Origin: Escherichia coli
Lineage (GTDB): Bacteria; Pseudomonadota; Gammaproteobacteria; Enterobacterales; Enterobacteriaceae
NCBI RefSeq assembly: GCF_030013205.1
Contig: NZ_CP122648.1
Direction: 5' to 3' (one strand)
DNA: 64,000 nucleotides
This document shows, piece after piece, positions 3,737-23,861 of this stretch. A program made the position numbers and the translations under genes. Within the stretch, counting starts at the first letter, position 1, and the number at the start of each line of letters is the position of its first letter. The notes below the pieces were generated by a model. The model was not told the origin of the DNA. It saw only the letters and a list, made by a program, of their open reading frames with translations, and did not search any database.

Positions 3737-4351
3737 TTAGCCGATTTTGTTACGTTGTGCGAATGTGTAAAGATCCATCAGTGATTTACATTCTAATTTT
3801 TCCATCAGGCGACTTTTATAAGTGCTGACAGTTTTGTTGCTGATGAACATTTTTTCCGCAATGTCATTATTATCCTTGCCATCAAGAATATATCGCATGA
3901 CACTAATTTCTTGTTTCGATAAGGAGTCGAGTTTTTGCTGGTCGGACGTTAAACTTCCAACAAACCGGTTGAGAGAGAAGGGGAAATAGCAGTAGCCATT
4001 TTTTGCAGCTTCAATAGCCGCAATGATATTGTTCATGCCTTCTTTTTTACTCACGAATCCATTAGCGCCAGCATCAGCACAATGTTTCCCGTAAAAATGG
4101 TCATTTTTAGCGGAGACGATAATAATAATTCCGCTATATTGGCGCTTCCTCAGCGTTTCTAACACCTGGATACCGTTAACTCCGGGGATATCGACATCAA
4201 TGATGACGATATCAGGTTTAAGTGTTTCCACCCGCTGAACGGCACTTCCCCCTTCAGTCAACTCCGCTAAGATTTCAATATCGTTTTTGATCAATAAATT
4301 ACGAATTGCTGCGATAGCAAGAGGATGGTCATCAATAATTATTGCGTTCAT
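3737..4351 (-). CDS. evgA: Response regulator EvgA (receiver + LuxR-type HTH)
   Basis: 204-aa ORF MNAIIIDDHPLAIAAIRNLL... with C-terminal LuxR/FixJ HTH; divergent from emrK. Confidence 0.95.
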   Translation of the reverse strand: MNAIIIDDHPLAIAAIRNLLIKNDIEILAELTEGGSAVQRVETLKPDIVIIDVDIPGVNGIQVLETLRKRQYSGIIIIVSAKNDHFYGKHCADAGANGFVSKKEGMNNIIAAIEAAKNGYCYFPFSLNRFVGSLTSDQQKLDSLSKQEISVMRYILDGKDNNDIAEKMFISNKTVSTYKSRLMEKLECKSLMDLYTFAQRNKIG

Positions 4352-4576
4352 AGATTATTCCCTTTGCAATGAAGCATCTCCCTTCTCCCTGTAGTAATAC
4401 AGACATAAGGCATCATCTCATTTTCTCAATAAAAATAAGAAAATTTGAGCTTCCTTTAAGATAATTCGACAAGTATACCATATAAATAGTCGGCATGAAT
4501 GAAATGTCAACAATAAAATCAGGGATTGTACCGATGATTTATAGTTTCACATTAGCACTATAAGTCTTCTCACTAA

Positions 4577-4594
4577 TCCTACATGCGTAAGAAT
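4577..4594. promoter_or_regulatory. Candidate EvgA-binding inverted repeat in the evgA-emrK divergent promoter region
   Basis: 18-bp near-palindrome TCCTACATGCGTAAGAAT in the 415-bp intergenic region; resembles the EvgA box half-sites TTCYTACA/TGTARGAA as I recall them. Confidence 0.4.
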
Positions 4595-4766
4595 TGTATT
4601 GCAAAAGCCACGGTTTAGTCCTCTGTTGTTTTTTTTGCACCTCATTTAAATTAGGCCTCCAACGTTCCTGGGACAATGTGCAACACATGCACTGTGTTTG
4701 ATATGAAGAATGAATACTCTTTTCATTCAATTCATAAATTTCATCTATGCGAAATGAGAGATAATA

Positions 4767-5930
4767 GTGGAACAGATTAATTCAAATAAAAAACATTCTA
4801 ACAGAAGAAAATACTTTTCTTTATTGGCGGTAGTTTTATTTATTGCGTTTTCAGGTGCCTATGCCTATTGGTCAATGGAATTAGAAGACATGATTAGTAC
4901 AGATGATGCCTATGTCACGGGGAATGCAGATCCAATTTCTGCACAAGTTTCAGGCAGCGTCACTGTCGTTAATCATAAAGATACGAACTACGTTCGACAG
5001 GGTGACATTTTAGTCTCACTGGATAAGACTGATGCCACTATCGCACTCAATAAAGCTAAAAATAATCTGGCCAATATTGTTCGGCAAACGAATAAACTGT
5101 ACTTACAGGATAAACAATACAGTGCCGAAGTCGCTTCAGCACGTATTCAGTATCAACAATCTTTAGAAGATTATAACCGTCGTGTACCTTTAGCGAAGCA
5201 GGGGGTTATTTCAAAAGAAACGCTGGAGCATACCAAAGATACGTTAATAAGTAGCAAAGCGGCATTGAATGCCGCTATCCAGGCTTATAAAGCGAATAAA
5301 GCTTTAGTAATGAACACACCATTAAACCGTCAGCCACAAGTCGTTGAAGCGGCGGATGCAACCAAAGAAGCCTGGTTAGCGCTTAAACGTACGGATATTA
5401 AGAGTCCTGTTACCGGCTATATTGCCCAGCGAAGTGTTCAGGTTGGCGAAACAGTGAGTCCCGGACAATCGTTAATGGCTGTTGTACCGGCACGTCAAAT
5501 GTGGGTTAATGCCAACTTTAAAGAAACACAACTCACGGATGTACGGATTGGTCAATCGGTCAATATTATCAGCGATCTTTATGGTGAAAATGTTGTGTTT
5601 CATGGTCGGGTGACAGGGATCAATATGGGAACCGGCAATGCATTCTCCTTATTACCTGCACAAAATGCGACAGGGAACTGGATCAAAATCGTTCAGCGTG
5701 TACCGGTTGAAGTTTCTCTTGATCCAAAAGAACTCATGGAACATCCCTTACGTATTGGTTTATCGATGACAGCAACTATTGATACGAAGAACGAAGACAT
5801 TGCCGAGATGCCTGAGCTGGCTTCAACCGTGACGTCCATGCCTGCTTATACCAGTAAGGCTTTAGTTATCGATACCAGTCCGATAGAAAAAGAAATTAGC
5901 AACATTATTTCGCATAATGGACAACTTTAA
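4767..5930 (+). CDS. emrK: Multidrug efflux membrane fusion protein EmrK
   Basis: 387-aa ORF with N-terminal TM anchor and HlyD-family periplasmic adaptor features; stop overlaps emrY start. Confidence 0.95.
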   Translation: MEQINSNKKHSNRRKYFSLLAVVLFIAFSGAYAYWSMELEDMISTDDAYVTGNADPISAQVSGSVTVVNHKDTNYVRQGDILVSLDKTDATIALNKAKNNLANIVRQTNKLYLQDKQYSAEVASARIQYQQSLEDYNRRVPLAKQGVISKETLEHTKDTLISSKAALNAAIQAYKANKALVMNTPLNRQPQVVEAADATKEAWLALKRTDIKSPVTGYIAQRSVQVGETVSPGQSLMAVVPARQMWVNANFKETQLTDVRIGQSVNIISDLYGENVVFHGRVTGINMGTGNAFSLLPAQNATGNWIKIVQRVPVEVSLDPKELMEHPLRIGLSMTATIDTKNEDIAEMPELASTVTSMPAYTSKALVIDTSPIEKEISNIISHNGQL

Positions 5931-7468
5931 TGGCAATCACTAAATCAACTCCGGCACCATTAACCGGTGGGACGTTATGGTGCGTCACTATTGCATTGTC
6001 ATTAGCGACGTTTATGCAAATGTTGGATTCCACTATTTCTAACGTCGCAATACCGACAATATCTGGCTTTCTGGGAGCATCAACAGACGAAGGCACCTGG
6101 GTTATCACTTCGTTTGGCGTAGCAAATGCCATTGCGATCCCTGTTACCGGCAGGCTGGCACAAAGAATAGGCGAATTAAGATTATTTTTACTTTCAGTAA
6201 CCTTTTTTTCGCTATCTTCATTAATGTGTAGCCTATCGACCAATCTTGATGTGCTGATATTTTTTAGAGTCGTTCAGGGGTTAATGGCGGGGCCGTTAAT
6301 TCCACTGTCACAGAGTTTATTATTAAGGAATTATCCGCCAGAAAAAAGAACATTTGCTCTGGCATTATGGTCAATGACCGTAATTATCGCGCCGATATGT
6401 GGGCCGATATTGGGTGGCTACATTTGCGATAACTTTAGCTGGGGTTGGATATTTTTAATCAATGTCCCAATGGGGATTATCGTCCTGACATTATGCTTAA
6501 CCTTACTTAAAGGAAGAGAAACTGAGACTTCACCGGTCAAAATGAATCTACCAGGACTGACCCTGTTAGTGCTCGGTGTTGGTGGCTTGCAAATTATGCT
6601 CGATAAAGGGCGCGATCTGGATTGGTTCAACTCGAGTACAATAATAATACTAACAGTAGTGTCAGTTATTTCTCTGATCTCTTTAGTCATTTGGGAGTCG
6701 ACCTCAGAGAACTCGATTCTTGACCTCAGTTTGTTTAAGTCCCGTAATTTCACCATTGGTATTGTGAGTATCACATGCGCGTATTTATTTTACTCTGGGG
6801 CAATAGTCCTTATGCCGCAATTACTCCAGGAAACGATGGGGTATAATGCGATATGGGCCGGACTTGCCTATGCGCCCATCGGCATCATGCCGCTATTAAT
6901 ATCGCCTTTGATAGGACGTTATGGCAACAAAATTGATATGCGGTTGTTGGTGACATTTAGTTTTTTAATGTATGCGGTTTGCTATTACTGGCGTTCTGTG
7001 ACATTTATGCCAACGATTGATTTTACAGGCATCATTTTGCCACAGTTTTTCCAGGGATTCGCCGTCGCCTGTTTCTTTTTACCCTTAACAACGATTTCGT
7101 TTTCAGGTTTGCCAGATAATAAATTTGCCAATGCCTCGAGTATGAGTAATTTTTTTCGTACCTTGTCAGGATCAGTTGGTACGTCGTTGACAATGACGCT
7201 GTGGGGACGACGCGAATCGTTACACCATAGTCAGTTGACAGCAACCATCGATCAATTAAACCCCGTGTTTAATTCATCGTCACAAATTATGGATAAATAC
7301 TATGGTTCGCTTTCAGGGGTTCTTAATGAAATTAATAATGAAATAACTCAGCAGTCACTTTCAATTTCTGCAAATGAGATTTTCCGTATGGCGGCTATTG
7401 CTTTTATCTTACTTACAGTTTTGGTTTGGTTTGCGAAACCGCCGTTTACAGCGAAAGGCGTTGGGTGA
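5930..7468 (+). CDS. emrY: MFS multidrug efflux transporter EmrY (14-TM)
   Basis: 512-aa polytopic membrane ORF, translationally coupled to emrK. Confidence 0.95.
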   Translation: MAITKSTPAPLTGGTLWCVTIALSLATFMQMLDSTISNVAIPTISGFLGASTDEGTWVITSFGVANAIAIPVTGRLAQRIGELRLFLLSVTFFSLSSLMCSLSTNLDVLIFFRVVQGLMAGPLIPLSQSLLLRNYPPEKRTFALALWSMTVIIAPICGPILGGYICDNFSWGWIFLINVPMGIIVLTLCLTLLKGRETETSPVKMNLPGLTLLVLGVGGLQIMLDKGRDLDWFNSSTIIILTVVSVISLISLVIWESTSENSILDLSLFKSRNFTIGIVSITCAYLFYSGAIVLMPQLLQETMGYNAIWAGLAYAPIGIMPLLISPLIGRYGNKIDMRLLVTFSFLMYAVCYYWRSVTFMPTIDFTGIILPQFFQGFAVACFFLPLTTISFSGLPDNKFANASSMSNFFRTLSGSVGTSLTMTLWGRRESLHHSQLTATIDQLNPVFNSSSQIMDKYYGSLSGVLNEINNEITQQSLSISANEIFRMAAIAFILLTVLVWFAKPPFTAKGVG

Positions 7469-7575
7469 TGATAAAAGGAGGGGGTTATAGCAGGTAAGAC
7501 CAGGGACCTTAAGTCTGCGCCATCGGCAGCATCGCTCACCCAGGGAAAGGATGGCGATGCTGAATTGAAAATTAA

Positions 7576-8904
7576 TTAGCGGCCTTTTGCCAGATATTGC
7601 TCCATCTCTTCTTCCGGCACCATTCCACCTCCCGTCGCCCACACCAGATGAGTGGCATTACGCAGTTGTTCTGCGCTGAAACCGTGCATCTGTTGGTAAC
7701 TTACTGATGCGCACACGCGCTGAGGCCCGGCCATACCCGCCAGTGCCGAAGGTTCAAGACGAATGCCTTCTTCCTGCGCCAGCCAGCCAAGCATGTCATA
7801 CATGGTTTGATCGCTAAGGGTATAGAAGCCATCCAGTAGACGCTCCATTGCCCGCCCGACAAAGCCTGATGCGCGACTAACTGCAAGGCCATCCGCTGCG
7901 GTAAGGTTGTCGATACCAATATCCTGAACAGAAATCTGATCGTGTAATCCAGTATGGACGCCTAACAACATACAAGGGGAGTGCGTTGGTTCGGCAAAAA
8001 AGCAGTGAACATGATCGCCAAACGCCAGTTTAAGTCCGAATGCGACGCCACCAGGACCACCGCCAACACCACACGGCAGATAGACAAACAGAGGGTTATC
8101 AGCATCGACGATACGACCTTGCTCGGCAAATTGCGCTTTAAGACGCTGGCCTGCGACGGAGTACCCAAGGAACAACGTGCGGGAATTCTCGTCATCAATA
8201 AAGAAACAGTTCGGGTCAGACTGCGCTGCTTTACGTCCTTCCTCGACGGCAACACCATAATCTTGCTCATATTCCACGACCGTAACGCCATGGCTGCGCA
8301 GTTTCGCTTTTTTCCACGCCCGGGCATCAGCAGACATATGCACTGTCACCTTAAAGCCAATGCGGGCGCTCATAATGCCGATTGATAACCCCAGATTTCC
8401 GGTTGAGCCCACAGCAATGCTGTATTGACTAAAGAACTGTTTAAACTCCGGAGACAGTAGTTTGCTGTAGTCATCTTCAGGCGTCAGCAACCCCGCTTCC
8501 AGAGCCAGTTTTTCTGCGTGTGCCAGGACTTCATAAATCCCGCCGCGTGCTTTTATGGAGCCGGAAATGGGTAAATGGCTATCTTTTTTCAGTAGCAGTT
8601 GCCCGCTGATCGGTTGTTGATATTCCTTTTCCAGCCGTTTTTGCATAGCCGGAATGGCAACCAGTTCTGATTCAATAATCCCCCCAGTGGCAGCAGTTTC
8701 AGGAAATGCTTTTGCCAGATAGGGTGCAAAACGAGATAAGCGCGCATGGGCGTCCTGAACATCCTGTTCGGTCAGGCCAACATAAGGTAAACCTTCAGCC
8801 AATGAGGTCGTGCCAGGATTAAACCAGGTGGTTTCTTGAAGAGCAACCAGATCCTTTACCAACGGATACTGGGCGATGAGCGAATTCATTTTAGCGTTTT
8901 CCAT
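7576..8904 (-). CDS. dsdA: D-serine dehydratase (PLP-dependent)
   Basis: 442-aa [34 protein letters not shown]... matching DsdA. Confidence 0.95.
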
Positions 8905-8921
8905 AGTACGTCTCTTTGCGC

Positions 8922-9145
8922 TTAGATGATAAATGACAGCAGGAATGTGCCCGCCAGAGCGACGACTGAAGCGATAAATGTCGCTGTCGTATAGTATTTA
9001 AATGTTTCATTGAGCGTAGCGCCGCAATATTGCTTCACCAGCCAGAAAAGCGAGTCCGTAACGATCGTGCAGCCAATTGCACTTGAACCGATATCAATCG
9101 TAAAAATTTCCGGGCTGATGTCGGGATACAGCGCCAGCACAATGA
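8922..9145 (-). pseudogene. dsdX: 3' remnant of the D-serine permease gene dsdX (about 75 C-terminal codons only)
   Basis: Minus-strand frame encodes ...LALYPDISPEIFTIDIGSSAIGCTIVTDSLFWLVKQYCG...LLSFII (GntP-family C-terminus) with no upstream coding continuation; csc DNA follows immediately. Confidence 0.75.
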
Positions 9146-9382
9146 TCCATATTTATATTTTCTTCTCCAGATTGGCGATGCCAGTTGGCATGTTTTACCT
9201 ACTTGCCTACATGGTTACTCGTTGGCAAGAACAGAGGCGGAATTGGGTACAATTGTCCGGGAATTATTGTTATTTTTTATTGTATTGCCGTGTCGGGTGA
9301 TAGGGCGTCGAGAATATCGTTGGATCTCGCCAGTGACGTCTGTTTCTGCTACAGTGCCCGTTTTACGGCAAACGGCTTGGGT

Positions 9383-10378
9383 ATGGCTTCATTAAAGGAT
9401 GTCGCACGCCTGGCGGGAGTGTCGATGATGACAGTCTCCCGGGTGATGCATAATGCAGAATCTGTGCGTCCTGCAACGCGTAACCGCGTATTGCAGGCAA
9501 TCCAGACCCTGAATTATGTTCCTGATCTTTCCGCCCGTAAGATGCGCGCTCAAGGACGTAAGCCGTCGACTCTCGCCGTGCTGGCGCAGGACACGGCCAC
9601 CACTCCTTTCTCTGTTGATATTCTGCTTGCCATTGAGCAAACCGCCAGCGAGTTTGGCTGGAATAGTTTTTTAATCAATATTTTTTCTGAAGATGACGCT
9701 GCCCGCGCGGCACGTCAGCTGCTTGCCCACCGTCCGGATGGCATTATCTATACTACAATGGGGCTGCGACATATCACGCTGCCTGAGTCTCTGTATGGTG
9801 AAAATATTGTATTGGCGAACTGTGTGGCGGATGACCCAGCGTTACCCAGTTATATCCCTGATGATTACACTGCACAATATGAATCAACACAGCATTTGCT
9901 CGCGGCGGGCTATCGTCAACCGTTATGCTTCTGGCTACCGGAAAGTGCGTTGGCAACAGGGTATCGTCGGCAGGGATTTGAGCAGGCCTGGCGTGATGCT
10001 GGACGAGATCTGGCTGAGGTGAAACAATTTCACATGGCAACAGGTGATGATCACTACACCGATCTCGCAAGTTTACTCAATGCCCACTTCAAATCGGGCA
10101 AACCAGATTTTGATGTTCTGATATGTGGTAACGATCGCGCAGCCTTTGTGGCTTATCAGGTTCTTTTGGCGAAGGGGGTACGTATCCCGCAGGATGTCGC
10201 CGTAATGGGCTTTGATAATCTGGTTGGCGTCGGGCATCTGTTTTTACCGCCGCTGACCACAATTCAGCTTCCACATGACATTATCGGGCGGGAAGCTGCA
10301 TTGCATATTATTGAAGATCGTGAAGGGGGAAGAGTGACGCGGATCCCTTGCCCGCTGTTGATCCGTTGTTCCACCTGA
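9383..10378 (+). CDS. cscR: LacI-family sucrose operon repressor CscR
   Basis: Start taken at MASLKDVARLAGVSMMTVSRV (HTH); the 66 codons upstream in the ORF track are judged non-coding read-through. 331 aa with a periplasmic-binding-like sugar domain. Confidence 0.9.
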   Translation: MASLKDVARLAGVSMMTVSRVMHNAESVRPATRNRVLQAIQTLNYVPDLSARKMRAQGRKPSTLAVLAQDTATTPFSVDILLAIEQTASEFGWNSFLINIFSEDDAARAARQLLAHRPDGIIYTTMGLRHITLPESLYGENIVLANCVADDPALPSYIPDDYTAQYESTQHLLAAGYRQPLCFWLPESALATGYRRQGFEQAWRDAGRDLAEVKQFHMATGDDHYTDLASLLNAHFKSGKPDFDVLICGNDRAAFVAYQVLLAKGVRIPQDVAVMGFDNLVGVGHLFLPPLTTIQLPHDIIGREAALHIIEDREGGRVTRIPCPLLIRCST

Positions 10379-10385
10379 TATTATG

Positions 10386-11828
10386 TTAACCCAGTTGCCA
10401 GAGTGCTCCATGTTGCAGCACAGCCACTCCGTGGGAGGCATAGAGCGACAGTTCCCGTTCTTCTGGCTGCGGATATATTCGGCTACTCATCACCGCCTCC
10501 CCGTCGTTAATAAATACTTCCACGGATGATGTATCGATAAATATCCTTAGGGCGAGCATGTCACCCTGCGGGAGGGGAATACTACGGTAGCCATCTAAAT
10601 TCTCGTGTGGGTAATACCGCCACAAAACAAGTCGCTCAGATTGGTTATCAATATACAGCCGCATTCCAGTGCCGAGCTGTAATCCGTAATGTTCGGCATC
10701 ACTGTTCTTCAGCGCCCACTGCAACTGAATCTCAACTGCTTGCGCGTTTTCCTGCAAAACATATTTATTGCTGATTGTGCGGGGAGAGATAGATTGATGC
10801 TGCTGGCGTAACGACTCAGCTTCGTGTACCGGGCGTTGTAGAAGTTTGCCATTGCTCTCTGATAGCTCGCGCGCCAGCGTCATGCAGCCTGCCCAGCCTT
10901 CACGTTTTGAGGGCATTGGCGATTCCCACATATCCATCCAGCCGATAACAATACGCCGACCATCCTTCGCTAAAAAGCTTTGTGGTGCATAAAAGTCATG
11001 CCCGTTATCAAGTTCAGTAAAATGCCCGGATTGTGCAAAAAGTCGTCCTGGCGACCACATTCCGGGTATTACGCCACTTTGAAAGCGATTTCGGTAACTG
11101 TATCCCTCGGCATTCATTCCCTGCGGGGAAAACATCAGATAATGCTGATCGCCAAGGCTGAAAAAGTCCGGACATTCCCACATATAGCTTTCACCCGCAT
11201 CAGCGTGGGCCAGTACGCGATCGAAGGTCCATTCACGCAATGAACTGCCGCGATAAAGCAGGATCTGCCCCGTGTTGCCTGGATCTTTCGCCCCGACAAC
11301 CATCCACCATGTGTCGGCTTCACGCCACACTTTAGGATCGCGGAAGTGCATGATTCCTTCTGGTGGAGTGAGGATCACACCCTGTTTCTCGAAATGAATA
11401 CCATCCCGACTGGTAGCCAGACATTGTACTTCGCGAATTGCATCGTCATTACCTGCACCATCGAGCCAGACGTGTCCGGTGTAGATAAGTGAGAGGACAC
11501 CATTGTCATCGACAGCACTACCTGAAAAACACCCGTCTTTGTCATTCTCGTCTCCTGGCGCTAGCGCAATAGGCTCATGCTGCCAGTGGATCATATCGTC
11601 GCTGGTGGCATGTCCCCAGTGCATTGGCCCCCAGTGTTCGCTCATCGGGTGATGTTGATAAAACGCGTGATAACGATCGTTAAACCAGATCAGGCCGTTT
11701 GGATCGTTCATCCACCCGGCAGGAGGCGCGAGGTGAAAATGGGGATAGAAAGTGTTACCTCGGCGCTCGTGAAGTTTTGCTAGTGCGTTTTGCGCCGCAT
11801 GTAATCGAGATTGCGTCATTTTTATCAT
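10386..11828 (-). CDS. cscA: Sucrose-6-phosphate hydrolase / invertase CscA (GH32)
   Basis: GH32 motifs WMNDPNG and FRDP, EC catalytic region; true start may be three codons in (MTQSRL...). Confidence 0.9.
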   Translation of the reverse strand: MIKMTQSRLHAAQNALAKLHERRGNTFYPHFHLAPPAGWMNDPNGLIWFNDRYHAFYQHHPMSEHWGPMHWGHATSDDMIHWQHEPIALAPGDENDKDGCFSGSAVDDNGVLSLIYTGHVWLDGAGNDDAIREVQCLATSRDGIHFEKQGVILTPPEGIMHFRDPKVWREADTWWMVVGAKDPGNTGQILLYRGSSLREWTFDRVLAHADAGESYMWECPDFFSLGDQHYLMFSPQGMNAEGYSYRNRFQSGVIPGMWSPGRLFAQSGHFTELDNGHDFYAPQSFLAKDGRRIVIGWMDMWESPMPSKREGWAGCMTLARELSESNGKLLQRPVHEAESLRQQHQSISPRTISNKYVLQENAQAVEIQLQWALKNSDAEHYGLQLGTGMRLYIDNQSERLVLWRYYPHENLDGYRSIPLPQGDMLALRIFIDTSSVEVFINDGEAVMSSRIYPQPEERELSLYASHGVAVLQHGALWQLG

Positions 11829-12034
11829 CCTGGTTAAGCAAATTTGGTGAATTGTTAACGTTAACTTTTATAAAAATAAAGTCCCTTACTTTCATAAATG
11901 CGATGAATATCACAAATGTTAACGTTAACTATGACGTTTTGTGATCGAATATGCATGTTTTAGTAAATCCATGACGATTTTGCGAAAAAGAGGTTTATCA
12001 CTATGCGTAAGTCAGATGAATTTAAGGGAAAAAA

Positions 12035-12958
12035 ATGTCAGCCAAAGTATGGGTTTTAGGGGATGCGGTCGTAGATCTCTTGCCAGAATCAGACGGGCGG
12101 CTACTGCCTTGTCCTGGCGGCGCGCCAGCTAACGTTGCGGTGGGAATCGCCAGATTAGGCGGAACAAGTGGGTTTATAGGTCGGGTCGGTGATGATCCTT
12201 TTGGTGCGTTAATGCAAAGAACGCTGCTAACTGAGGGTGTCGATATCACGTATCTGAAGCAAGATGAATGGCACCGGACATCCACGGTGCTTGTCGATCT
12301 GAACGATCAAGGAGAACGTTCATTTACGTTTATGGTCCGCCCCAGTGCCGATCTTTTTTTAGAGACGACAGACTTGCCCTGCTGGCGACATGGCGAATGG
12401 TTACATCTCTGTTCAATTGCGTTGTCTGCCGAGCCTTCGCGTACCAGCGCATTTACTGCGATGACGGCGATCCGGCATGCCGGAGGTTTTGTCAGCTTCG
12501 ATCCCAATATTCGTGAAGATCTATGGCAAGACGAGCATTTGTTCCGCTTGTGTTTGCGGCAGGCGCTACAACTGGCGGATGTCGTCAAGCTCTCGGAAGA
12601 AGAATGGCGACTTATCAGTGGAAAAACACAGAACGATCGGGATATATGCGCGCTGGCAAAAGAGTATGAGATCGCCATGCTGTTGGTGACTAAAGGTGCA
12701 GAAGGGGTGGTGGTCTGTTATCGAGGACAAGTTCACCATTTTGCTGGAATGTCTGTGAATTGTGTCGATAGCACTGGGGCGGGAGATGCGTTCGTTGCCG
12801 GGTTACTCACAGGTCTGTCCTCTACGGGATTATCTACAGATGAGAGAGAAATGCGACGAATTATCAATCTCGCTCAACGTTGCGGAGCGCTTGCAGTAAC
12901 AGCGAAAGGGGCAATGACAGCGCTGCCATGTCGACAAGAACTGGAAGGTGAGAAGTAA
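12035..12958 (+). CDS. cscK: Fructokinase CscK (PfkB/ribokinase family)
   Basis: 307-aa ORF with GG and GAGD(A/T) PfkB signatures. Confidence 0.9.
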   Translation: MSAKVWVLGDAVVDLLPESDGRLLPCPGGAPANVAVGIARLGGTSGFIGRVGDDPFGALMQRTLLTEGVDITYLKQDEWHRTSTVLVDLNDQGERSFTFMVRPSADLFLETTDLPCWRHGEWLHLCSIALSAEPSRTSAFTAMTAIRHAGGFVSFDPNIREDLWQDEHLFRLCLRQALQLADVVKLSEEEWRLISGKTQNDRDICALAKEYEIAMLLVTKGAEGVVVCYRGQVHHFAGMSVNCVDSTGAGDAFVAGLLTGLSSTGLSTDEREMRRIINLAQRCGALAVTAKGAMTALPCRQELEGEK

Positions 12959-13019
12959 ACGGCGAGGCCGCTCTTATCTCTAAATAGGACATGAATTTTT
13001 TAACGACAGGCAGGTAATT

Positions 13020-14267
13020 ATGGCACTGAATATTCCATTCAGAAATGCGTACTATCGTTTTGCATCCAGTTACTCATTTCTCTTTTTTATTTCCTGGTCG
13101 CTGTGGTGGTCGTTATACGCTATTTGGCTGAAAGGACATCTAGGATTAACAGGGACGGAATTAGGTACACTTTATTCGGTCAACCAGTTTACCAGCATTC
13201 TATTTATGATGTTCTACGGCATCGTTCAGGATAAACTCGGTCTGAAGAAACCGCTCATCTGGTGTATGAGTTTCATTCTGGTCTTGACCGGACCGTTTAT
13301 GATTTACGTTTATGAACCGTTACTGCAAAGCAATTTTTCTGTAGGTCTAATTCTGGGGGCGCTCTTTTTTGGCCTGGGGTATCTGGCGGGATGCGGTTTG
13401 CTTGACAGCTTCACCGAAAAAATGGCGCGAAATTTTCATTTCGAATATGGAACAGCGCGCGCCTGGGGATCTTTTGGCTATGCTATTGGCGCGTTCTTTG
13501 CCGGTATATTTTTTAGTATCAGTCCCCATATCAACTTCTGGTTGGTCTCGCTATTTGGCGCTGTATTTATGATGATCAACATGCGTTTTAAAGATAAGGA
13601 TCACCAGTGCATAGCGGCGGATGCGGGAGGGGTAAAAAAAGAGGATTTTATCGCAGTTTTCAAGGATCGAAACTTCTGGGTTTTTGTCATATTTATTGTG
13701 GGGACGTGGTCTTTCTATAACATTTTTGATCAACAACTCTTTCCTGTCTTTTATGCAGGTTTATTCGAATCACACGATGTAGGAACGCGCCTGTATGGTT
13801 ATCTCAACTCATTCCAGGTGGTACTCGAAGCGCTGTGCATGGCGATTATTCCTTTCTTTGTGAATCGGGTAGGGCCAAAAAATGCATTACTTATCGGTGT
13901 TGTGATTATGGCGTTGCGTATCCTTTCCTGCGCGTTGTTCGTTAACCCCTGGATTATTTCATTAGTGAAGCTGTTACATGCCATTGAGGTTCCACTTTGT
14001 GTCATATCCGTCTTCAAATACAGCGTGGCAAACTTTGATAAGCGCCTGTCGTCGACGATCTTTCTGATTGGTTTTCAAATTGCCAGTTCGCTTGGGATTG
14101 TGCTGCTTTCAACGCCGACTGGGATACTCTTTGACCACGCAGGCTACCAGACAGTTTTCTTCGCAATTTCGGGTATTGTCTGCCTGATGTTGCTATTTGG
14201 CATTTTCTTCCTGAGTAAAAAACGCGAGCAAATAGTTATGGAAACGCCTGTACCTTCAGCAATATAG
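13020..14267 (+). CDS. cscB: Sucrose:H+ symporter CscB (MFS, LacY-like)
   Basis: 415-aa 12-TM ORF MALNIPFRNAYYRFASSYSFLFFISWSLWWSLYAIW..., oligosaccharide:H+ symporter family. Confidence 0.9.
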   Translation: MALNIPFRNAYYRFASSYSFLFFISWSLWWSLYAIWLKGHLGLTGTELGTLYSVNQFTSILFMMFYGIVQDKLGLKKPLIWCMSFILVLTGPFMIYVYEPLLQSNFSVGLILGALFFGLGYLAGCGLLDSFTEKMARNFHFEYGTARAWGSFGYAIGAFFAGIFFSISPHINFWLVSLFGAVFMMINMRFKDKDHQCIAADAGGVKKEDFIAVFKDRNFWVFVIFIVGTWSFYNIFDQQLFPVFYAGLFESHDVGTRLYGYLNSFQVVLEALCMAIIPFFVNRVGPKNALLIGVVIMALRILSCALFVNPWIISLVKLLHAIEVPLCVISVFKYSVANFDKRLSSTIFLIGFQIASSLGIVLLSTPTGILFDHAGYQTVFFAISGIVCLMLLFGIFFLSKKREQIVMETPVPSAI

Positions 14268-14708
14268 ACGTAAACTTTTTCCGGTTGTTGTCGATATTTC
14301 CATATCCCTCAACCGGAAAATAATAATACAAAAATGCTTAGCCCAACTAATAATCACCTAATCCAAACGCCTCATTCATGTTCTGGTACAGTCGCTCAAA
14401 TGTACTCCGGATACGCGGTTCGCTGATTTCCAGGACATTGTCGTCATTCAGCGACCTGTCCCGAGTATCACGGGCCTGCGAATTCATCAAGGAATGCATT
14501 GCAGAGTGAAGTATCGAGTCACGCCATATTTCGCTATCAGGATTCTGTATGATGGTTACATCGCCCGGCCCAGGGCTGTTTAGTCATCAGCGCTTTCTGA
14601 CAGTGCTGAGATTTCAACCTGTTGCAGTAAAAATGAGTAGATATAGGGCAAGTGTGCTGCCAAACCCATCTTTTACGGGGTGAAGGTAGATATTGTTAGA
14701 AGGGTATC

Positions 14709-14723
14709 TGGTGTCCCCTGCAG
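14709..14723. repeat. argW-derived att core fragment (matches the 3'-terminal 15 nt of argW)
   Basis: TGGTGTCCCCTGCAG is identical to the first 15 nt of the argW gene as read on the + strand at 40640-40654. Confidence 0.7.
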
Positions 14724-14796
14724 ACATCTACTTGAAGCGGCAGGGGATTGATTGGAATGGTGTTTTTTAGGTGTGAGAAATATTTTACCCGCTATT

Positions 14797-14997
14797 TTAC
14801 CCATTGGCGCGGCTTAAGAGCTTATTTTTGAATTCACAATGGTCACGATATAACCATCTTGCTCGCCCGTGGATAACTTTGGCTTTTGGCAGGTCGCCGG
14901 ACTTAATCCGGTCGTAGATGAAGGTTTTACCAAAGCCAGTATCAGCCATGATGAATTTCAAATCAACCAGGGAATCAGGCTGTAGTTCGTGTTGCAT
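14797..14997 (-). CDS. Excisionase / AlpA-family small HTH DNA-binding protein
   Basis: 66-aa ORF ...FIMADTGFGKTFIYDRIKSGDLPKAKVIHGRARWLYRD... fits the Xis/AlpA HTH pattern; sits between two att-core fragments. Confidence 0.6.
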   Translation of the reverse strand: MQHELQPDSLVDLKFIMADTGFGKTFIYDRIKSGDLPKAKVIHGRARWLYRDHCEFKNKLLSRANG

Positions 14998-15016
14998 GAG
15001 TGCTATCTCCGAATAG

Positions 15017-15032
15017 GGAATCGAACCTGCAA
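15017..15032. repeat. Second argW-derived fragment (matches the next 16 nt of the tRNA 3' region)
   Basis: GGAATCGAACCTGCAA is identical to argW 40654-40669; together with 14709-14723 it covers 30 nt of the tRNA 3' end, but the two halves are separated by 293 bp. Confidence 0.6.
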
Positions 15033-15107
15033 ATCAGGCAAGAAAAAACCGCCATCAGGCGGTTTGGTGTTCTTTCAGTTCTTCAATTCGAATATTGGTT
15101 ACGTCTG

Positions 15108-15327
15108 CATGCGCTATCTGCGCCCATATCATCCAGTGGTTATAGCAGTCGTTGATGTCCTCTGCTTCGATAAGGAGAAGAAATTCCCAATTACTCAAGA
15201 GCTATACGAGCGACTGGAAAGCGTCATCCATGATTACGATGGTGAAATCAGTTTATGCGAGGCGATTGGCACACTTGAATTGCTGAAGCAGTCATTGATT
15301 GAAGGCGCGAAAGAGTCCTTAGCCTGA
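15108..15327 (+). CDS. Hypothetical small phage protein upstream of the terS remnant
   Basis: Open frame ending ...ITQELYERLESVIHDYDGEISLCEAIGTLELLKQSLIEGAKESLA; start chosen at the first ATG, uncertain. Confidence 0.3.
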
Positions 15328-15344
15328 AATAACAACTAAGTGAG

Positions 15345-15555
15345 ATGAATATGGCAGCACCAAAGGGCAACCGATTTTGGGAGGCCCGCAGTAGTCATGG
15401 GCGAAATCCTAAATTCGAATCGCCTGAGGCGCTGTGGGCTGCTTGTTGTGAATACTTCGAGTGGGTAGAAGCTAACCCGCTATGGGAGATGAAGGCATTC
15501 TCGTATCAGGGTGAAGTGATACAAGAGCCTATCGCCAAGATGCGAGCGATGACCA
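15345..15555 (+). pseudogene. Small terminase subunit (P22 gp3-like), N-terminal about 70 codons only
   Basis: [71 protein letters not shown] matches the P22 gp3 N-terminus as I recall it; the rest of the 157-aa ORF is out-of-context read-through overlapping the next gene. Confidence 0.7.
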
Positions 15556-15657
15556 TTATCCAAACCGTATGCCTGTTGGTAGCGGTAATCAGTTGGCGAA
15601 GTGGAACGGTTGGAGTTACTTCCAGCGAAAGGAACCTTGCGATAACGGGAGCGAATA

Positions 15658-17076
15658 ATGCCGATTCAGCAACTTCCGCTCATGAAAGGTGTCGGAAAAG
15701 ACTTCCGAAACGCCGACTATATCGACTATCTGCCAGTGAATATGTTGGCTACACCCAAAGAAATCCTGAACAGCAGCGGATATCTTCGCTCATTCCCGGG
15801 CATTGCCAAACGTTCTGATGTGAACGGCGTATCGCGCGGAGTTGAGTACAACATGGCGCAGAGTGCTGTTTATCGCGTGTGTGGCGGCAAGCTGTACAAA
15901 GGAGAAAGTGAGGTCGGTGACGTCGCAGGAAGTGGTCGCGTATCAATGGCGCATGGTCGGACATCACAGGCGGTAGGCGTTAATGGTCAACTGGTCGAGT
16001 ATCGTTATGATGGCGCGGTCAAAACCGTCTCAAACTGGCCTACAGACAGCGGATTCACGCAGTATGAGTTAGGTTCTGTTCGTGACATTACGCGCTTACG
16101 TGGGCGTTATGCGTGGTCAAAAGACGGAACTGATTCATGGTTTATCACTGACCTTGAAGACGAATCGCATCCTGACCGTTACAGCGCACAATATCGTGCC
16201 GAGTCGCAGCCTGACGGCATCATCGGCATCGGAACATGGCGAGACTTCATCGTCTGCTTTGGTTCATCGACGATTGAATATTTCTCCCTGACTGGTGCAA
16301 CCACCGTTGGTGCCGCTTTGTATGTTGCACAGCCATCACTGATGGTGCAGAAAGGTATTGCTGGGACTTACTGCAAAACGCCATTCGCTGATTCTTATGC
16401 GTTCATCAGCAATCCGGCAACAGGTGCGCCGTCTGTATACATCATCGGCTCCGGTCAGGTGTCACCAATCGCCAGCGCGAGCATTGAGAAAATCCTCCGC
16501 TCCTACACTGCTGATGAACTGGCTGATGGCGTGATGGAATCGCTGCGGTTTGATGCGCATGAGTTGCTGATTATCCATCTTCCGCGCCATGTCCTCGTGT
16601 ACGACGCATCTTCAAGCGCCAATGGTCCGCAATGGTGTGTGCTGAAAACAGGCCTGTATGACCATGTGTACCGCGCTATTGACTTCATTTACGAAGGCAA
16701 TCAGATAACGTGCGGCGATAAGCTGGAGTCTGTTACCGGGAAATTGCAGTTCGATATATCTTCACAATACGAAAAACAACAAGAGCATATTTTATATTCC
16801 CCTCTAATAAAGGCAGATAACGCTTTAATAAATGACCTTGAATTAGAAACATCTGGCGGCGTGTGTGATAGAATAGATAAAATATTTATATCAGCCACTA
16901 CAGATGGAATTAGTTACGGTCGTGAGCAAATGGTCGTATTACAAAAACCATTTGTATATGAAAATCGCGTTTTATGGCGAAAGGTTGGTCGAGTTAGACG
17001 CCTCATTGGATTTAAATTCAGAGTTATTGCAAAAGGTCCTGTCACATTATCAGGCCTTTCTATTCGTGTAACATAA
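15658..17076 (+). CDS. P22 gp10-like packaged-DNA stabilization / head completion protein
   Basis: 472-aa [52 protein letters not shown]..., same length and near-identical N-terminal region as P22 gp10 from memory. Confidence 0.85.
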
Positions 17077-17097
17077 ATCGAAACTCAAGGAGTAGAT

Positions 17098-17631
17098 ATG
17101 TTAAGTGAAAACGCAAAAGATATCGAAGGATATGAAGGACTGTACGCCATCACTAATGATGGTAGAGTTTACTCGCATTCAAGAGTAAATTTGAGGGGAC
17201 GTCTTATTAAGGGTAGGTGGCTGAAGCATAATCATAACGTAAATGGATATAAGTATGTGTGTTTATATAAGGATGGCGTAAAAAAGAACATACTAATACA
17301 TAAGCTTGTTGCATCTCACTTTGTTGGTGGATTTGCTGAAGGGTTACAGGTAAATCATATAGATGGTGATAAATATAATAATAACTATCTAAATCTTGAA
17401 TGGGTTACTCCATCAGGAAACATCTCACACTCATATGGATTGGAGTCGAGAGGTAATGTAAAAGGAGAAAGGAATGGTAATTCTAAAATATCTAATGATG
17501 ATGTCATAAAGATAAAAGAAATGGTTGCCAATGGATTTCCTCAGTGTGAAGTTGCTAAATTATTTGGAATTCACAATTCAAAGGTTAGTAGAATTGTAAA
17601 TGGCAAGGCATGGAGGCATGTTAATGGCTGA
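17098..17631 (+). CDS. HNH homing endonuclease (HNH + AP2/NUMOD-like DNA-binding region)
   Basis: 177-aa ORF with [17 protein letters not shown] and HKLVASHFV...[11 protein letters not shown] (HNH) motifs; free-standing between gp10 and the tail needle gene. Confidence 0.8.
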
Positions 17632-18055
17632 TTCGAATCTCAACACCCCTGTTATTGTGCAGGCTACGCGGCTCGATACATCAATACTTCCACGCAATAT
17701 CTTCTCGCAGTCGTATCTGCTTTACGTTATCGCACAGGGCACTGATGTTGGTAACGTGGCTAACAAGGCCAACGAGGCCGGACAGGGCGCTTATGATGCA
17801 CAGGTCAGGAACGATGAGCAGGATGTGATTCTGGTCGATCATGAAGAAAGAATTCGTCAGCTCCGCATTGAAGTAGATGACCATGAAATCCGTATTGCTG
17901 CGAATACTGCGGCAATTGCAGCGCTGGATGTCAGACTAACCACGGCTGAAGGAGAAATAGTCACCTTACAGGCTGACGTCAGCGCTCTTGATGGCCGGGT
18001 TCCCGAGAAATACAAAGAGCAGAATTACAAGAAAAGGCTCTGGACAGACAGATAG
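17624..18055 (+). CDS. Tail needle protein (P22 gp26-like), N-terminal domain conserved, short divergent C-terminus
   Basis: [43 protein letters not shown]...[48 protein letters not shown] matches the gp26 N-terminal coiled coil; only 143 aa versus about 233 in P22. Confidence 0.7.
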
Positions 18056-18582
18056 CCAGAGAAAGCAATCAGTTAAAGCTCGAAGAGCTAAAACAGAAAC
18101 AGGCAGATGTTCGGCAAAAGGCTGACATAGCCCGCGCTGACAGGCAGGCCGCCGCTCAGGGTGCGGTTGATACGTTCAGCACCGCGCTTGATTCTCTCAA
18201 CGAGACAGAGCAAAGCCCCGGCCTTTCAAAAGCAGTAGGAATTCGCTCAGCGTTTCCGACAGTTCCTGGCTCTGATGCGGCTAACTTTGAAGCAAGACTC
18301 GACACCTTTAAAGCTCAAACTTTCCTCCCTATGGTGCAGTCCCTGAAGGGGATGGGGGCTCTTTCAGATGCTGAGGGTAAAAAATTATCTGATGCGGTTG
18401 GTGCTCTAAGTCCCAAAATGAGTGAAAAGGCTTTTCGTGACTCTATCGGAAAGATTCGAAATCAGCTTGAAAGCAAGTTGAGCACTGTTAAAAAACAGTT
18501 TGATTATCAGGAGCCAGTACAGAATACGCCAGGGCAACAATCTACTACTGGCAGTAACTTTTCTTCACTATGGGGTGATTAA
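17986..18582 (+). pseudogene. Start-less coiled-coil ORF fragment (possible 3' part of a tail needle or ejection gene after a deletion or frameshift)
   Basis: Frame open from 17986 with no ATG until 18331; encodes ...LKLEELKQKQADVRQKADIARADRQAAAQGAVDTFSTALDSL...; stop overlaps the start of the next gene (ATGA at 18579-18582). Confidence 0.3.
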
Positions 18583-20579
18583 TGGCTAAAGCATGGAAAG
18601 ATGTTATCGCCTCTCCACAGTATCAGGCGTTAGCACCAGAACAAAAAGCGCAGGCTCAGGAGCAATACTTCAATGAAGTCGTTGCCCCGCAAGCCGGAGA
18701 AAATGCAGAGCAGGCTAAGCAAGCTTTCTATGCTGCCTATCCATTGCCATATGTGCAGCAAGTGGAGACACAGCAACCAGTAGCACAGCAACAACCACAG
18801 CAAAGTGGATTTATGTCTGATCTTGGCGAAGCAGTAAAAGAGACTGGTCGCGGACTGGTGCAGGCTGGCGTGAACGTGGCAAACATACCTGCATCAGTTG
18901 CCGATGCTGTAACAAGCGCGGCGGCTTGGGCTGGCGGTAAACTCGGCATTGGCGATGGTACATATCAACCAGCGCCACGTGTAACAACGCAGGGATTAGA
19001 GCAGGACTTTGGCCTTCAGCAAGGCGCGCTGACTCCACAAACGACAGAGGGAAGGGTATTTGCTGAAGCATTGCCTTACCTCACTCCTGCTGGCGTTGAG
19101 AGAGCGGCAGCACAGGCACCAACACTTGCTGGTCGAATTGCTCATGGGGCAACTCGCCTTCTAGCAGAAAACGCAGTTGGATCACTTGCTGCAAATAGTG
19201 CGAAAGATGATGCGGAAGCACTCGCCACCGATTTGGGCGTTGGTGTGCTGGCTGGCGGTGCTATTAACGCTGCCGGACGTGGATTAGGTGCTGCTTATCG
19301 TGGAGTTCGTGGTGCTATTGCGCCAGAAGCGCAGCAAGCTATCAGATTTGCAGAGCGTGAAGGAGTGCCTCTGCACACCACAGACATGTTACAGCCTACT
19401 TCCCGCGTCGGAAAAATGGCGCAAACGACAGCAGAAAATATCCCCCTGGCGGGCACAAGCGGAATGAGAGCAACGCAACAGGAAGCGAGAAGCCAGTTGG
19501 TTCAGAGATTTGCTGATAAATTCGGTGAGTATGATCCAGCGGTTGTTATTGACAGCCTTAAAGCGAAAACATCAGGAATTCGTCGCGCTGCAGGAAATCG
19601 ACTGGAGCAGGTTCAGAATGCTATGGCGGGAATAAACATTCAGCCTGCAAGAGCAATTCAGCAGATTGATACAGAAATATCTAACCTGCAGAAGCTTGGT
19701 AAGGTTGCTGATAACGAGACTATTTCAAAACTTCAGTCCTATCGTGATGAGCTTGTTCGCAATGCTGGTCCTGATGGTCCGGTAAATCTGGATTTGAAGC
19801 AATTAAGCGATCTGCGCAGCCAGTTCAGAATGGACGTGAAGGGTGAGCGACCAGTGTTACCAAACCGTTCCGATGCTGCAATTCAGCGCGTTTACAAGGC
19901 AATGACCGACGATATCAATGGTGCCATTGGTCAGAATCTTGGCAACGATACTCTCCGTAAATATCAGCAGGCCAATGCCGTCTACGCTGACGAAGCCGCG
20001 AAACTAAAGAATACCAGGCTGAAGAATGTTCTCATGAAAGGCGATCTGACGCCGGAAGTTGTCAACAACATGCTATTCAGCAAGAACAAATCGGAAATTA
20101 AGACGCTGTATAACTCAGTTGGTCGTGTTGGCAGGGCGCAAATGCGCAATGGCATCATTGGAAAGGCGATGGAGAAATCTGGCGGATCCCCTGACCAGTT
20201 CCTTCGGCAGCTTAACATCCTGCAAAACCAGACTGGCATCACATTTAAGGGGCAGGACGCTGCTTATCTGAAAGGATTAAAAAACTACCTGCAATCTACG
20301 CAGCAGGCTGCAAAAGCGGCAGTAACAACACCCACAGGGCAGCAAACTATCCCGTTCATTATTGGGTATGGGACGGCAATGAACCCTGCGACAACTGGCG
20401 CAGCAGTAAGCTACGGACTTCTTACTCGCGCCTATGAGAGCGAGCCATTCAGAAATGCAATGCTCAGAATGGCAAACACCCCACGCGGATCAACAGCGTT
20501 TGAGAAAGCCATGCAGCAGGCACAAAAGGCAATTAACGCTCTGACGCAGGGGGCTAAGTCTGATGCGTTGTCAGAATAG
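18582..20579 (+). CDS. Putative phage DNA-transfer (ejection/injection) protein
   Basis: 665-aa Ala/Gln/Gly-rich protein in the position of the P22 ejection-protein genes (after the tail needle, before mnt); assignment is positional and compositional. Confidence 0.5.
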   Translation: MAKAWKDVIASPQYQALAPEQKAQAQEQYFNEVVAPQAGENAEQAKQAFYAAYPLPYVQQVETQQPVAQQQPQQSGFMSDLGEAVKETGRGLVQAGVNVANIPASVADAVTSAAAWAGGKLGIGDGTYQPAPRVTTQGLEQDFGLQQGALTPQTTEGRVFAEALPYLTPAGVERAAAQAPTLAGRIAHGATRLLAENAVGSLAANSAKDDAEALATDLGVGVLAGGAINAAGRGLGAAYRGVRGAIAPEAQQAIRFAEREGVPLHTTDMLQPTSRVGKMAQTTAENIPLAGTSGMRATQQEARSQLVQRFADKFGEYDPAVVIDSLKAKTSGIRRAAGNRLEQVQNAMAGINIQPARAIQQIDTEISNLQKLGKVADNETISKLQSYRDELVRNAGPDGPVNLDLKQLSDLRSQFRMDVKGERPVLPNRSDAAIQRVYKAMTDDINGAIGQNLGNDTLRKYQQANAVYADEAAKLKNTRLKNVLMKGDLTPEVVNNMLFSKNKSEIKTLYNSVGRVGRAQMRNGIIGKAMEKSGGSPDQFLRQLNILQNQTGITFKGQDAAYLKGLKNYLQSTQQAAKAAVTTPTGQQTIPFIIGYGTAMNPATTGAAVSYGLLTRAYESEPFRNAMLRMANTPRGSTAFEKAMQQAQKAINALTQGAKSDALSE

Positions 20580-20668
20580 CTTTTCAAACACCAGGAACGT
20601 GCAAAAACCAAATATGTAGAATGCAATATTCATCATATCTCTGTGCATAAATCCTCCGTAACGGATGG

Positions 20669-20932
20669 TTATCTGCTGTCTTTTTTATATAGCTCCTTGA
20701 GCGTATCAAAGACAATTTTCTTAACCATATCAGATTGTTGTTCTGCCATACGCTCTGCATCGTCAATGTAAACTGATGCAGAGCTTTGTTTATCCAATGA
20801 TTCTTCAATCGCTGCAATTATCTCTGAGTTCAGCGACCTGTTATTCATCTTCGCACGCAGCTTAATTTTCGCGTGGAGTTCATGCGGAAGTCTCAAGTGA
20901 AACTGCGCCTCATCGTATTTGCTGTACATCAT
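20669..20932 (-). CDS. mnt: Mnt/Arc-family ribbon-helix-helix repressor
   Basis: 87-aa product MMYSKYDEAQFHLRLPHELHAKIKLRAKMNNRSLNSEIIAAIEESL...DMVKKIVFDTLKELYKK resembles P22 Mnt; the longer 244-aa ORF in the track is an upstream read-through. Confidence 0.75.
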   Translation of the reverse strand: MMYSKYDEAQFHLRLPHELHAKIKLRAKMNNRSLNSEIIAAIEESLDKQSSASVYIDDAERMAEQQSDMVKKIVFDTLKELYKKDSR

Positions 20933-21064
20933 CAATGCCTCACCAAATGGGTGGAATGGCATCGTAAAACCCACTGTACAAATCAACAATCGTACCGTTT
21001 CGGTATGTAACAAATTCCAACCGTAGCCATGCTGCGGCCATTCCTTGTATCTGGAGCAAATTAA

Positions 21065-21734
21065 ATGACAGACATTACAGCCAATGTGATCGTATCGATG
21101 CCTTCGCAACTCTTCACTATGGCTCGTTCTTTTAAAGCCGTAGCCAATGGCAAAATTTATATCGGTAAAATTGACACTGACCCGGTAAATCCTGAAAACC
21201 AGATTCAGGTTTATGTGGAGAACGAAGACGGTTCTCACGTTCCTGTTGCACAGCCAATCATCATTAACGCCGCTGGTTATCCTGTATATAACGGACAGAT
21301 TGCCAAGTTCGTTACTGTGCAAGGCCATTCCATGGCTGTTTATGATGCGTATGGGGCGCAGCAGTTCTATTTTCCGAATGTGCTGAAGTACAACCCTGAT
21401 CAATTACGAACAATTCTTGAAGGAAGTATTATTGATTCTTCAGGCGATGTTTTTGGCTCTCCTGTGCGTGATTTTGAATATTTTGGCGCAGTAGGTGATG
21501 GTGTTGCCGATGACACTAATGCAATTAAATCCGCGGCTGCATGGGTTACTTCTGGAAATTATCGGCAAATAACTACCAGAGAACAAAAGATATATCGCGT
21601 AACATCAACCGTTGATTTTAATTTCGCTAACGGCCGCGGTCACTCGATTCTGATGAAGAGTCCAATCCGACCTGATGCTGGAACCGGCACTGCTTTTCTC
21701 ATTCAGAATACTCGAGACTCGGTATTCAATTTGA
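21065..21734 (+). pseudogene. Tailspike gene, 5' part (P22 gp9-type head-binding domain plus start of beta-helix), interrupted by IS1
   Basis: [58 protein letters not shown]... matches the P22 tailspike N-terminal domain; the frame is cut by the IS1 end at 21735. Confidence 0.85.
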
Positions 21735-21749
21735 GGTAATGACTCCAAC

Positions 21750-22447: not shown

Positions 22448-22502
22448 TGGAGCACCTCAAAAACACCATCATACACTAAATCAGTAAGTTGGCAGCATCA
22501 CC

Positions 22503-23860: not shown

Positions 23861-23861
23861 C

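Follow-up and report, generated by a model that had tools for sequence, protein, structure and literature searches.

In Escherichia coli EDL933, E. coli W, and numerous further strains, the sucrose regulon cscRAKB has been described as occupying the place of dsdC and the dsdX 5′ portion (PMC7486766, PMC4366372, PMC3032704, PMC11251922, PMC13054288), and all five reports cite Jahreis 2002 and Moritz & Welch 2006. In wild-type csc strains, sucrose use is slow or dependent on high sucrose, due to repression by CscR (PMC11251922, PMC3938415), and sucrose growth and the behavior of csc and dsdA have been tested in EDL933-derived EHEC (PMC7486766). The regulon is controlled through a CRP site and two operators, each a 12-bp inverted repeat, a description that PMC11251922 credits to Jahreis 2002. 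Strains with the csc allele do not grow on D-serine and are sensitive to it (PMC4366372, PMC7486766, PMC13054288), and D-serine import continues via CycA, SstT, and YhaO (PMC7486766, PMC4699771). Also published are the Suc+/D-Ser− mutual exclusivity and a silent dsdA that can be reactivated by deletions through read-through from the cscA promoter (cscAp). The literature ties the trait to a preference for the gut over the urinary niche and, among LEE-positive pathogens, to mutual exclusion between it and dsdCXA, and a triplex PCR for typing exactly this csc/dsd dimorphism already exists (PMC13054288).

The window analyzed here is a stretch of 64,000 nucleotides of E. coli DNA (contig NZ_CP122648.1). 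In a BLAST comparison with K-12 MG1655, a 5,569-bp block (window positions 9140–14708) was found in place of 2,368 bp of K-12 sequence, which hold dsdX up to its nucleotide 1,120 as well as dsdC and the dsdC-dsdX control region. The left breakpoint (9139/9140) falls at nucleotide 1121 of K-12 dsdX (DsdX codon 374), and the K-12 dsdC and 5′ part of dsdX had no BLAST match within the window. On the other side, the block extends 441 bp past cscB, so that its right edge is the 15-bp core of the argW 3′ end and not the cscB stop codon, and K-12 homology is back at pawZ/torI. The locus thus has the two junctions of a csc-type allele, one inside dsdX beside an intact dsdA and one at the argW 3′ end, and the four-gene layout cscR(+), cscA(−), cscK(+), cscB(+) with a divergent cscA/cscKB control region; the gene order is collinear with that of O157:H7 and strain C1. 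No IS or repeat was found at the block breakpoints, an Rfam scan of positions 7000–16000 (E ≤ 0.1) gave no matches, and the GC content of the block (42–52%) is not distinctive relative to its flanks. The breakpoints and the profile match of the dsdX remnant bear out an earlier note on this DNA, which had read cscRAKB as a substitute for dsdC and the 5′ section of dsdX and had put the start of cscR about 240 bp past the breakpoint (243 bp were found). The remnant that it described as the last roughly 75 codons of dsdX is real but slightly shorter, with 218 nt (2 nt, 71 codons, and the stop) or about 72 codons; PGAP labels it 'DsdX, incomplete, missing N-terminus'. With the remnant, the 235 bp that precede the dsdA start codon have been kept. 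The coordinates of all features are listed in Table 1.

Table 1. Features of the csc block and its surroundings (positions in the window).
Feature	Position	Strand	Description and evidence
dsdA	7576–8904	−	D-serine ammonia-lyase, 442 aa, intact; TIGR02035 at 808 bits; full-length match to PDB 3ss7
dsdX 3′ remnant (dsdX′)	8922–9139	−	DsdX residues 374–445 and stop; NF007395 profile positions 374–445 of 445
Left spacer of csc block	9140–9382		243 bp, breakpoint to cscR start; no K-12 match
cscR	9383–10378	+	LacI-family repressor, 331 aa, intact; PF00356 and PF00532; 327/331 identical to O157:H7 CscR
cscA	10386–11819	−	GH32 invertase/sucrose hydrolase, 477 aa, intact; TIGR01322; PF00251 and PF08244; 473/477 identical to O157:H7
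Divergent cscA/cscKB control region	11820–12034		Between cscA and cscK; sequence and repeats
Two perfect 12-bp palindromes GTTAACGTTAAC	11854–11865 and 11918–11929		Putative CscR operators; sequence and repeats
CRP-like site TGCGATGAATATCACA	11899–11914		In cscA/cscKB control region; sequence
cscK	12035–12958	+	Fructokinase (PfkB), 307 aa, intact; NF006957; PF00294
cscB	13020–14267	+	Sucrose:H+ symporter, LacY family, 415 aa, intact; PF01306; TIGR00882; 413/415 identical to O157:H7
Right spacer of csc block	14268–14708		441 bp; flank in 2,620 genomes
DUF4942 gene fragment	14347–14499	−	50 codons, in right spacer; PF13708 positions 18–62 of 190
15-bp argW 3′ end copy	14709–14723	−	K-12 'pawZ'; attR of CPS-53-type prophage; exact repeat of 40640–40654
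argW	40640–40714	−	tRNA-Arg(CCU), intact; ARAGORN; K-12 synteny argW-yfdC-mlaA

Between the csc block and the intact argW, 26 kb away, are two tandem integrated elements. This is why ARAGORN found no tRNA genes in positions 1–25000 of the window. In genomes without a prophage at this site, the right flank of the csc block directly abuts tRNA-Arg, and the two mobile elements would have inserted in tandem at argW later, moving the tRNA away from the block in this porcine-ETEC-type chromosome. The csc locus thus adjoins a tRNA integration hotspot that holds an IS1 along with the two tandem elements.

CscA, CscK, and CscB scored above the curated cut-offs of their families (TIGR01322 at 478 bits with a cut-off of 356, NF006957 at 505.9 bits with a cut-off of 450, and TIGR00882 at 595 bits with a cut-off of 220, respectively; CscB also matched PF01306 at 644 bits), and CscR, which reached no specific equivalog model, was assigned at the family level. 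The control region is 99.5–100% identical in O157:H7 and strain C1 (one base different from O157:H7, none from C1), and its palindromes and CRP-like site fit the published description (PMC11251922), with binding predicted from sequence. A sigma-70 scan was uninformative, as it scored more promoter-like sites in shuffled sequence than in the real one and picked up none of the known csc promoters. The csc proteins are 98.7–99.8% identical to those of bovine strain C1. Because they are 98–99.8% identical to those of the O157:H7 strain, we infer that the csc locus confers sucrose-inducible, CscR-repressed growth on sucrose. In a mechanism drawn from homology and from published experiments on near-identical loci, CscB would import sucrose with H+, CscA would hydrolyze it, and CscK would phosphorylate the fructose; CscR would repress the divergent cscA and cscKB promoters at the two GTTAACGTTAAC operators, and CRP-cAMP would be required for csc expression.

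The retained dsdA encodes a protein identical to K-12 DsdA at 435/442 positions. It would be transcriptionally silent without DsdC, and D-serine that enters by CycA and other carriers would stay undegraded and act as a bacteriostatic agent. The toxicity of D-serine to csc-type strains is thus explained by CycA, SstT, and YhaO still bringing it in, and the lost function is DsdC-dependent dsdA induction and detoxification, not D-serine uptake. The earlier expectation of impaired D-serine uptake and induction therefore holds for induction and is correct only in part for uptake (PMC7486766, PMC4699771). Since cscA, dsdX′, and dsdA are co-directional, loss of cscR by deletion could bring dsdA under control of the cscA promoter, so that D-serine is catabolized again. 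Three substitutions in DsdA are private to this lineage (K23Q, L142P, and G343S), two of them at positions that are conserved in Salmonella DsdA; CscR, CscK, and CscA have a few private substitutions each, those of CscR being D34N (in the DNA-binding domain), D234A, and G312D. Given these substitutions, CscR or DsdA could differ in behavior from the characterized versions.

The spread of the left junction was determined with a 301-bp query centered on it, counting matches with at least 80% coverage in a collection of 5,426 complete E. coli genomes. The junction was found at the same nucleotide in 2,671 of them (about 49%), and the right flank of the csc block was present in 2,620; in the dsd-type genomes listed, only positions 1–150 of the query matched. 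The earlier note was right that the arrangement has been published, and the locus matches the published loci of E. coli W, EDL933, and many others, but 'some E. coli lineages' understated its frequency. The sharing of both junctions indicates one old event that is not strain-specific. This is further supported by the divergence from O157:H7, which is 1.5% in the csc block and 2.9% in the adjacent emrY-dsdA core, with collinearity between the two lineages. At the E. coli argW-dsd locus, this DNA therefore very probably carries the common csc-type allele, derived from one ancient event. That event would have put the 5.57-kb block between the argW 3′ end and codon 374 of dsdX and taken out 84% of dsdX along with dsdC and the dsdXA promoter region that depends on DsdC, and the allele would since have been inherited vertically and by homologous recombination through its conserved flanks.

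There is next to no chance that the csc/dsdX junction was instead made by a recent strain-specific insertion or rearrangement, or by an assembly artefact. The locus does adjoin the tRNA hotspot with its tandem elements and IS1, but the junction recurs in independent complete genomes, the block has diverged between lineages, and its breakpoints are free of IS and repeats; a recent or independent insertion was rejected, as both junctions are common to thousands of genomes. The common csc-type allele could also have decayed here, as in Shigella, whose csc loci are mostly disrupted (PMC11251922), which would make the strain both sucrose-negative and D-serine-negative. The private substitutions in CscR, CscK, and CscA would fit such decay, but it is very unlikely given the family scores, the near-invariant control region, and four full-length csc ORFs without internal stops, frameshifts, or IS, none of which PGAP called a pseudogene; with intact ORFs, a pseudogenized locus was rejected. 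Compensation by a second intact dsdCXA at another genomic site, of the kind found in many K1 strains, would abolish the D-serine phenotype, and the earlier note had named such a copy as what would refute its reading of the phenotype. Strains with two copies reportedly exist, going by the title of Moritz & Welch 2006. A few genomes have csc and dsd together (PMC11251922), and across the whole collection a composite cscR and dsdC query found 276 more places than genomes. Among the closest relatives the picture is different: each of the 18 closest complete genomes has dsdA in a single place, the composite query hit nothing but the csc place in every one of the 17 genomes with 100% identity, and neither dsdA nor dsdC is on any plasmid of the collection. 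The window and 17–18 near-identical porcine ETEC/O139:H1 genomes thus lack a second dsdA or dsdC; a compensating copy, rejected for the closest genomes on these counts, is highly improbable. The 8-kb region is 100% identical to several porcine ETEC chromosomes, which, with the junction shared by 2,671 genomes, speaks against a chance pattern. The window and ETEC1748 are 99.994% identical across 49.8 kb and differ by a small indel near 32377.

It is unlikely, but less so, that dsdA is not fully silent because a sucrose-derepressed cscA promoter reads through antisense cscR into dsdX′-dsdA and couples D-serine detoxification to sucrose. The orientation of cscA is the same as that of dsdX′ and dsdA, the cscA and cscR stop codons are only 7 bp apart, no terminator-like sites were found on the minus strand from 10386 to 8956, and in EHEC with cscR deleted the dsdA read density follows that of cscA (PMC7486766). 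However, a wild-type cscAp-to-dsdA reporter fragment gave low GFP, and its authors see the changed genomic context as chiefly responsible (PMC7486766); 1 kb of untranslated antisense transcription is a likely target of Rho termination, and csc-type strains fail to grow on D-serine. These published reporter data from the wild-type arrangement speak against strong read-through when sucrose is absent. There is a slim chance that the layout cscA, antisense cscR, dsdX′, dsdA could be a working conditional circuit and not just a scar. If so, sucrose-induced read-through would lower cscR expression through antisense interference and switch on a dsdA that is otherwise silent, and sucrose-fed cells would gain D-serine tolerance. 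This would explain why dsdA is intact in nearly all csc-type genomes (near full-length in 5,377/5,426 genomes overall).

As a common csc-type allele, the locus predicts a strain that is sucrose-positive, D-serine-non-utilizing, and D-serine-sensitive. Its value lies in annotation and phenotype prediction only; the csc-for-dsdC/dsdX arrangement is already known, real but ordinary, and the allele adds no new biology. When it is compared with the csc regulon of EC3132, W, and O157:H7 EDL933 (Bockmann 1992; Jahreis 2002; Moritz & Welch 2006; O'Boyle 2020, PMC7486766), it is apparent that the four genes, their order, and their orientation are the same, as are the dsdX truncation point, the spacers, the operators, and the CRP-like site. 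Nucleotide identity to O157:H7 is 98.5% across the whole 5.57-kb block, and only allelic detail differs, i.e. a few private substitutions per protein and a CscK of 307 aa instead of 304 aa, caused by a 1-nt indel near the 3′ end of the gene. Beyond the argW core, however, the neighborhood is unlike that of the EC3132/W/EDL933 locus, with a different prophage remnant and an extra 12.65-kb island. The dsdCXA-type locus of K-12 and CFT073 is flanked in the same way, by emrKY-dsdA at one end and the argW 3′ core/torI at the opposite end, and has a DsdA protein that is 98% identical in K-12, but where the 5,569-bp csc block lies here, K-12 carries 2,368 bp with full-length dsdX, dsdC, and the divergent promoter region. 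By description, the csc locus of Citrobacter freundii also confers sucrose catabolism, with homologous proteins and conserved operators (PMC11251922), although its cscA and cscR are each inverted and its DNA is under the BLASTN detection threshold with an E. coli csc query (PMC11251922). Plasmid- or transposon-borne scr systems, again compared by description, likewise catabolize sucrose, but through a PTS permease, a porin, and a sucrose-6-phosphate hydrolase, and they are unlinked to dsd.

BLAST comparison of the window with the K-12 MG1655 locus (L002) revealed that homology spans positions 4106–9139 and resumes at 14709. The left breakpoint lies between dsdX nucleotides 1120 and 1121, leaving 218 nt of the gene, and the right breakpoint is exactly pawZ, the 15-bp K-12 copy of the 3′ end of the tRNA-Arg gene argW; the identical 15-mer is found both at 14709–14723 and in the genuine argW tRNA, at its 3′ end. 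The intervening 5,569-bp csc block (9140–14708) occupies the position of 2,368 bp in K-12, made up of dsdC with 95 bp of its downstream sequence, a divergent control region (217 bp) and the first 1,120 nt of dsdX. The replacement of dsdC and 5′ dsdX by the sucrose genes cscRAKB, as claimed in the earlier note, is therefore observed, but the replaced segment does not end at cscB and extends 441 bp past its stop codon. The sizes claimed were essentially right: the dsdX remnant (dsdX′) has 72 codons (∼75 claimed), and the spacer to cscR is 243 bp (∼240 claimed). The assignments of dsdA, dsdX′ and cscRAKB were all borne out by NCBIfam and Pfam. Next to dsdA, emrY is intact in the window; its counterpart in O157:H7 strain SS TX 313-1 (locus L005, 1–1200) is an annotated pseudogene interrupted by a stop codon.

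Table. Features of the argW-dsd region (ORFs and annotation)
Feature	Position	Strand	Details
emrY	5930-7468	+	intact, 512 aa
dsdA	7576-8904	-	442 aa; TIGR02035, 808 bits
dsdX′ ORF	8922-9140	-	C-terminal, 72 codons; NCBIfam DsdX profile positions 374-445/445
cscR	9383-10378	+	331 aa; LacI family
cscA	10386-11819	-	477 aa from RefSeq start; GH32/TIGR01322, 478 bits
cscK	12035-12958	+	307 aa; fructokinase NF006957, 506 bits (cut-off 450)
cscB	13020-14267	+	415 aa; LacY_symp, 644 bits
DUF4942 fragment	14347-14499	-	50 codons; Pfam positions 18-62/190
torI	14797-14997	-	prophage
Truncated small-terminase and gp4 genes			prophage
Packaged-DNA stabilisation protein	15658-17076		prophage
NUMOD4 protein	17098-17631		prophage
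Tail and acyltransferase pseudogenes; Arc repressor			prophage
IS1	about 21750-22447		prophage
gtrA/DUF2142/glycosyltransferase			prophage; O-antigen modification cassette
intS	26651-27808	-	prophage
MazE/MazF pair	28206-28798	+	island
P2-type major head protein	28842-30113	-	island; phrog_70
236-aa protein	30113-30823	-	island; no PHROG match
ogr/Delta-like zinc finger			island
Second integrase	32629-33630	-	island
Primase	33633-36302	-	island; 889 aa, phrog_1139
Icd-like protein	37297-37824	-	island
HTH regulator			island
Integrase	39199-40461	-	island

A second intact dsdCXA copy, which would remove the phenotypic consequence, was found neither in the window nor in the closest genomes. Such a copy is very unlikely, because BLAST against K-12 detected no dsdC or dsdX 5′ sequence in the 64-kb window, all 18 closest genomes have a single dsdA, and a composite query joining K-12 dsdC to 1.5 kb from the window's cscR region matched a single place in 17/17 genomes that are 100% identical. 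No plasmid anywhere in the collection carried dsdA. The claimed failure of dsdA induction stands, whereas the claimed impairment of D-serine uptake is only partly right, as D-serine still enters via CycA, SstT and YhaO (PMC7486766, PMC4699771); the phenotype is thus toxicity with uninduced dsdA, and, this caveat apart, the earlier interpretation is supported. The silent dsdA is recoverable, since deletions removing cscR bring it under the cscA promoter, cscAp (PMC7486766), a rescue that follows from the location of cscA, dsdX′ and dsdA on the minus strand, as in the window. The only reading with any novelty would be that, in the wild-type layout, transcription from cscAp reads through into dsdA in a sucrose-dependent manner. 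The lack of terminator-like sites on the minus strand from 10386 to 8956 is compatible with this, but published reporter data make it unlikely. Compared with K-12, O157:H7 and strain C1, DsdA of the porcine lineage has three substitutions of its own (K23Q, L142P and G343S), two of which change residues (K23 and G343) that are conserved in the Salmonella DsdA of known structure (3r0x); selection on the silent gene may have been relaxed.

No csc ORF contains internal stops, and the csc proteins are 98–99.8% identical to those of the O157:H7 strain and bovine strain C1. EDL933-derived EHEC grows on sucrose and loses this ability upon csc deletion (PMC7486766). The cscA-cscK intergenic region contains the perfect palindrome GTTAACGTTAAC twice, 64 bp apart, and a CRP-like TGCGATGAATATCACA between the copies. 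Judged by sequence, these putative sites fit the two 12-bp operators and CRP site described in the passage of PMC11251922 that credits them to Jahreis et al. 2002. CscR carries lineage-private substitutions relative to O157:H7 and C1 (D34N in the LacI DNA-binding domain, D234A and G312D), which might change repression strength and hence sucrose growth rate.

Two tandem elements separate the csc block from argW. The 12.65-kb island directly at argW (27984–40639) looks like a P4-type satellite with its own capsid gene and is rare, with just 19 of the 5,426 complete genomes covering at least 80% of it. In tandem with it lies a degraded P22/CPS-53-type prophage (14709–27983), bounded by the exact argW core (14709–14723) and a degenerate core (TGGTGTCCC-TGCAG) at ∼27970–27983.

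Several porcine ETEC and O139:H1 chromosomes match the 8-kb region at 100% identity, and 2,644 of the 5,426 complete genomes carry at least 80% of it in a single place. A 301-bp query with the left junction at its centre was covered in 2,671 genomes; among the matches listed, dsd-type genomes (the K-12-like allele) aligned with no more than bases 1–150, which means that homology in them ends at the same nucleotide. The right spacer of the block occurs in 2,620 genomes and directly adjoins annotated tRNA-Arg where argW carries no prophage. The block aligns collinearly with that of O157:H7 at 98.5% identity, compared with 97.1% for the adjacent emrY-dsdA core. Together, the shared junctions, the distribution of the right flank and the similarity to O157:H7 indicate one ancient argW-dsdX replacement, present today as a dimorphic allele within the species. 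The csc-type genomes share a conserved DUF4942 fragment, located between cscB and the argW core; its presence suggests that the block came with or beside an argW-integrated island of which this scrap is the only remainder.

The csc-type arrangement is already known and is carried by roughly half of the E. coli sequenced. The substitution of csc for dsd is stated explicitly in the literature: in E. coli W, the csc regulon lies between the argW region and dsdX, and D-serine use is lost (PMC3032704); 35% of ECOR strains had csc, which for the most part is mutually exclusive with dsd (PMC11251922), and the two alleles are typed by triplex PCR (PMC13054288).
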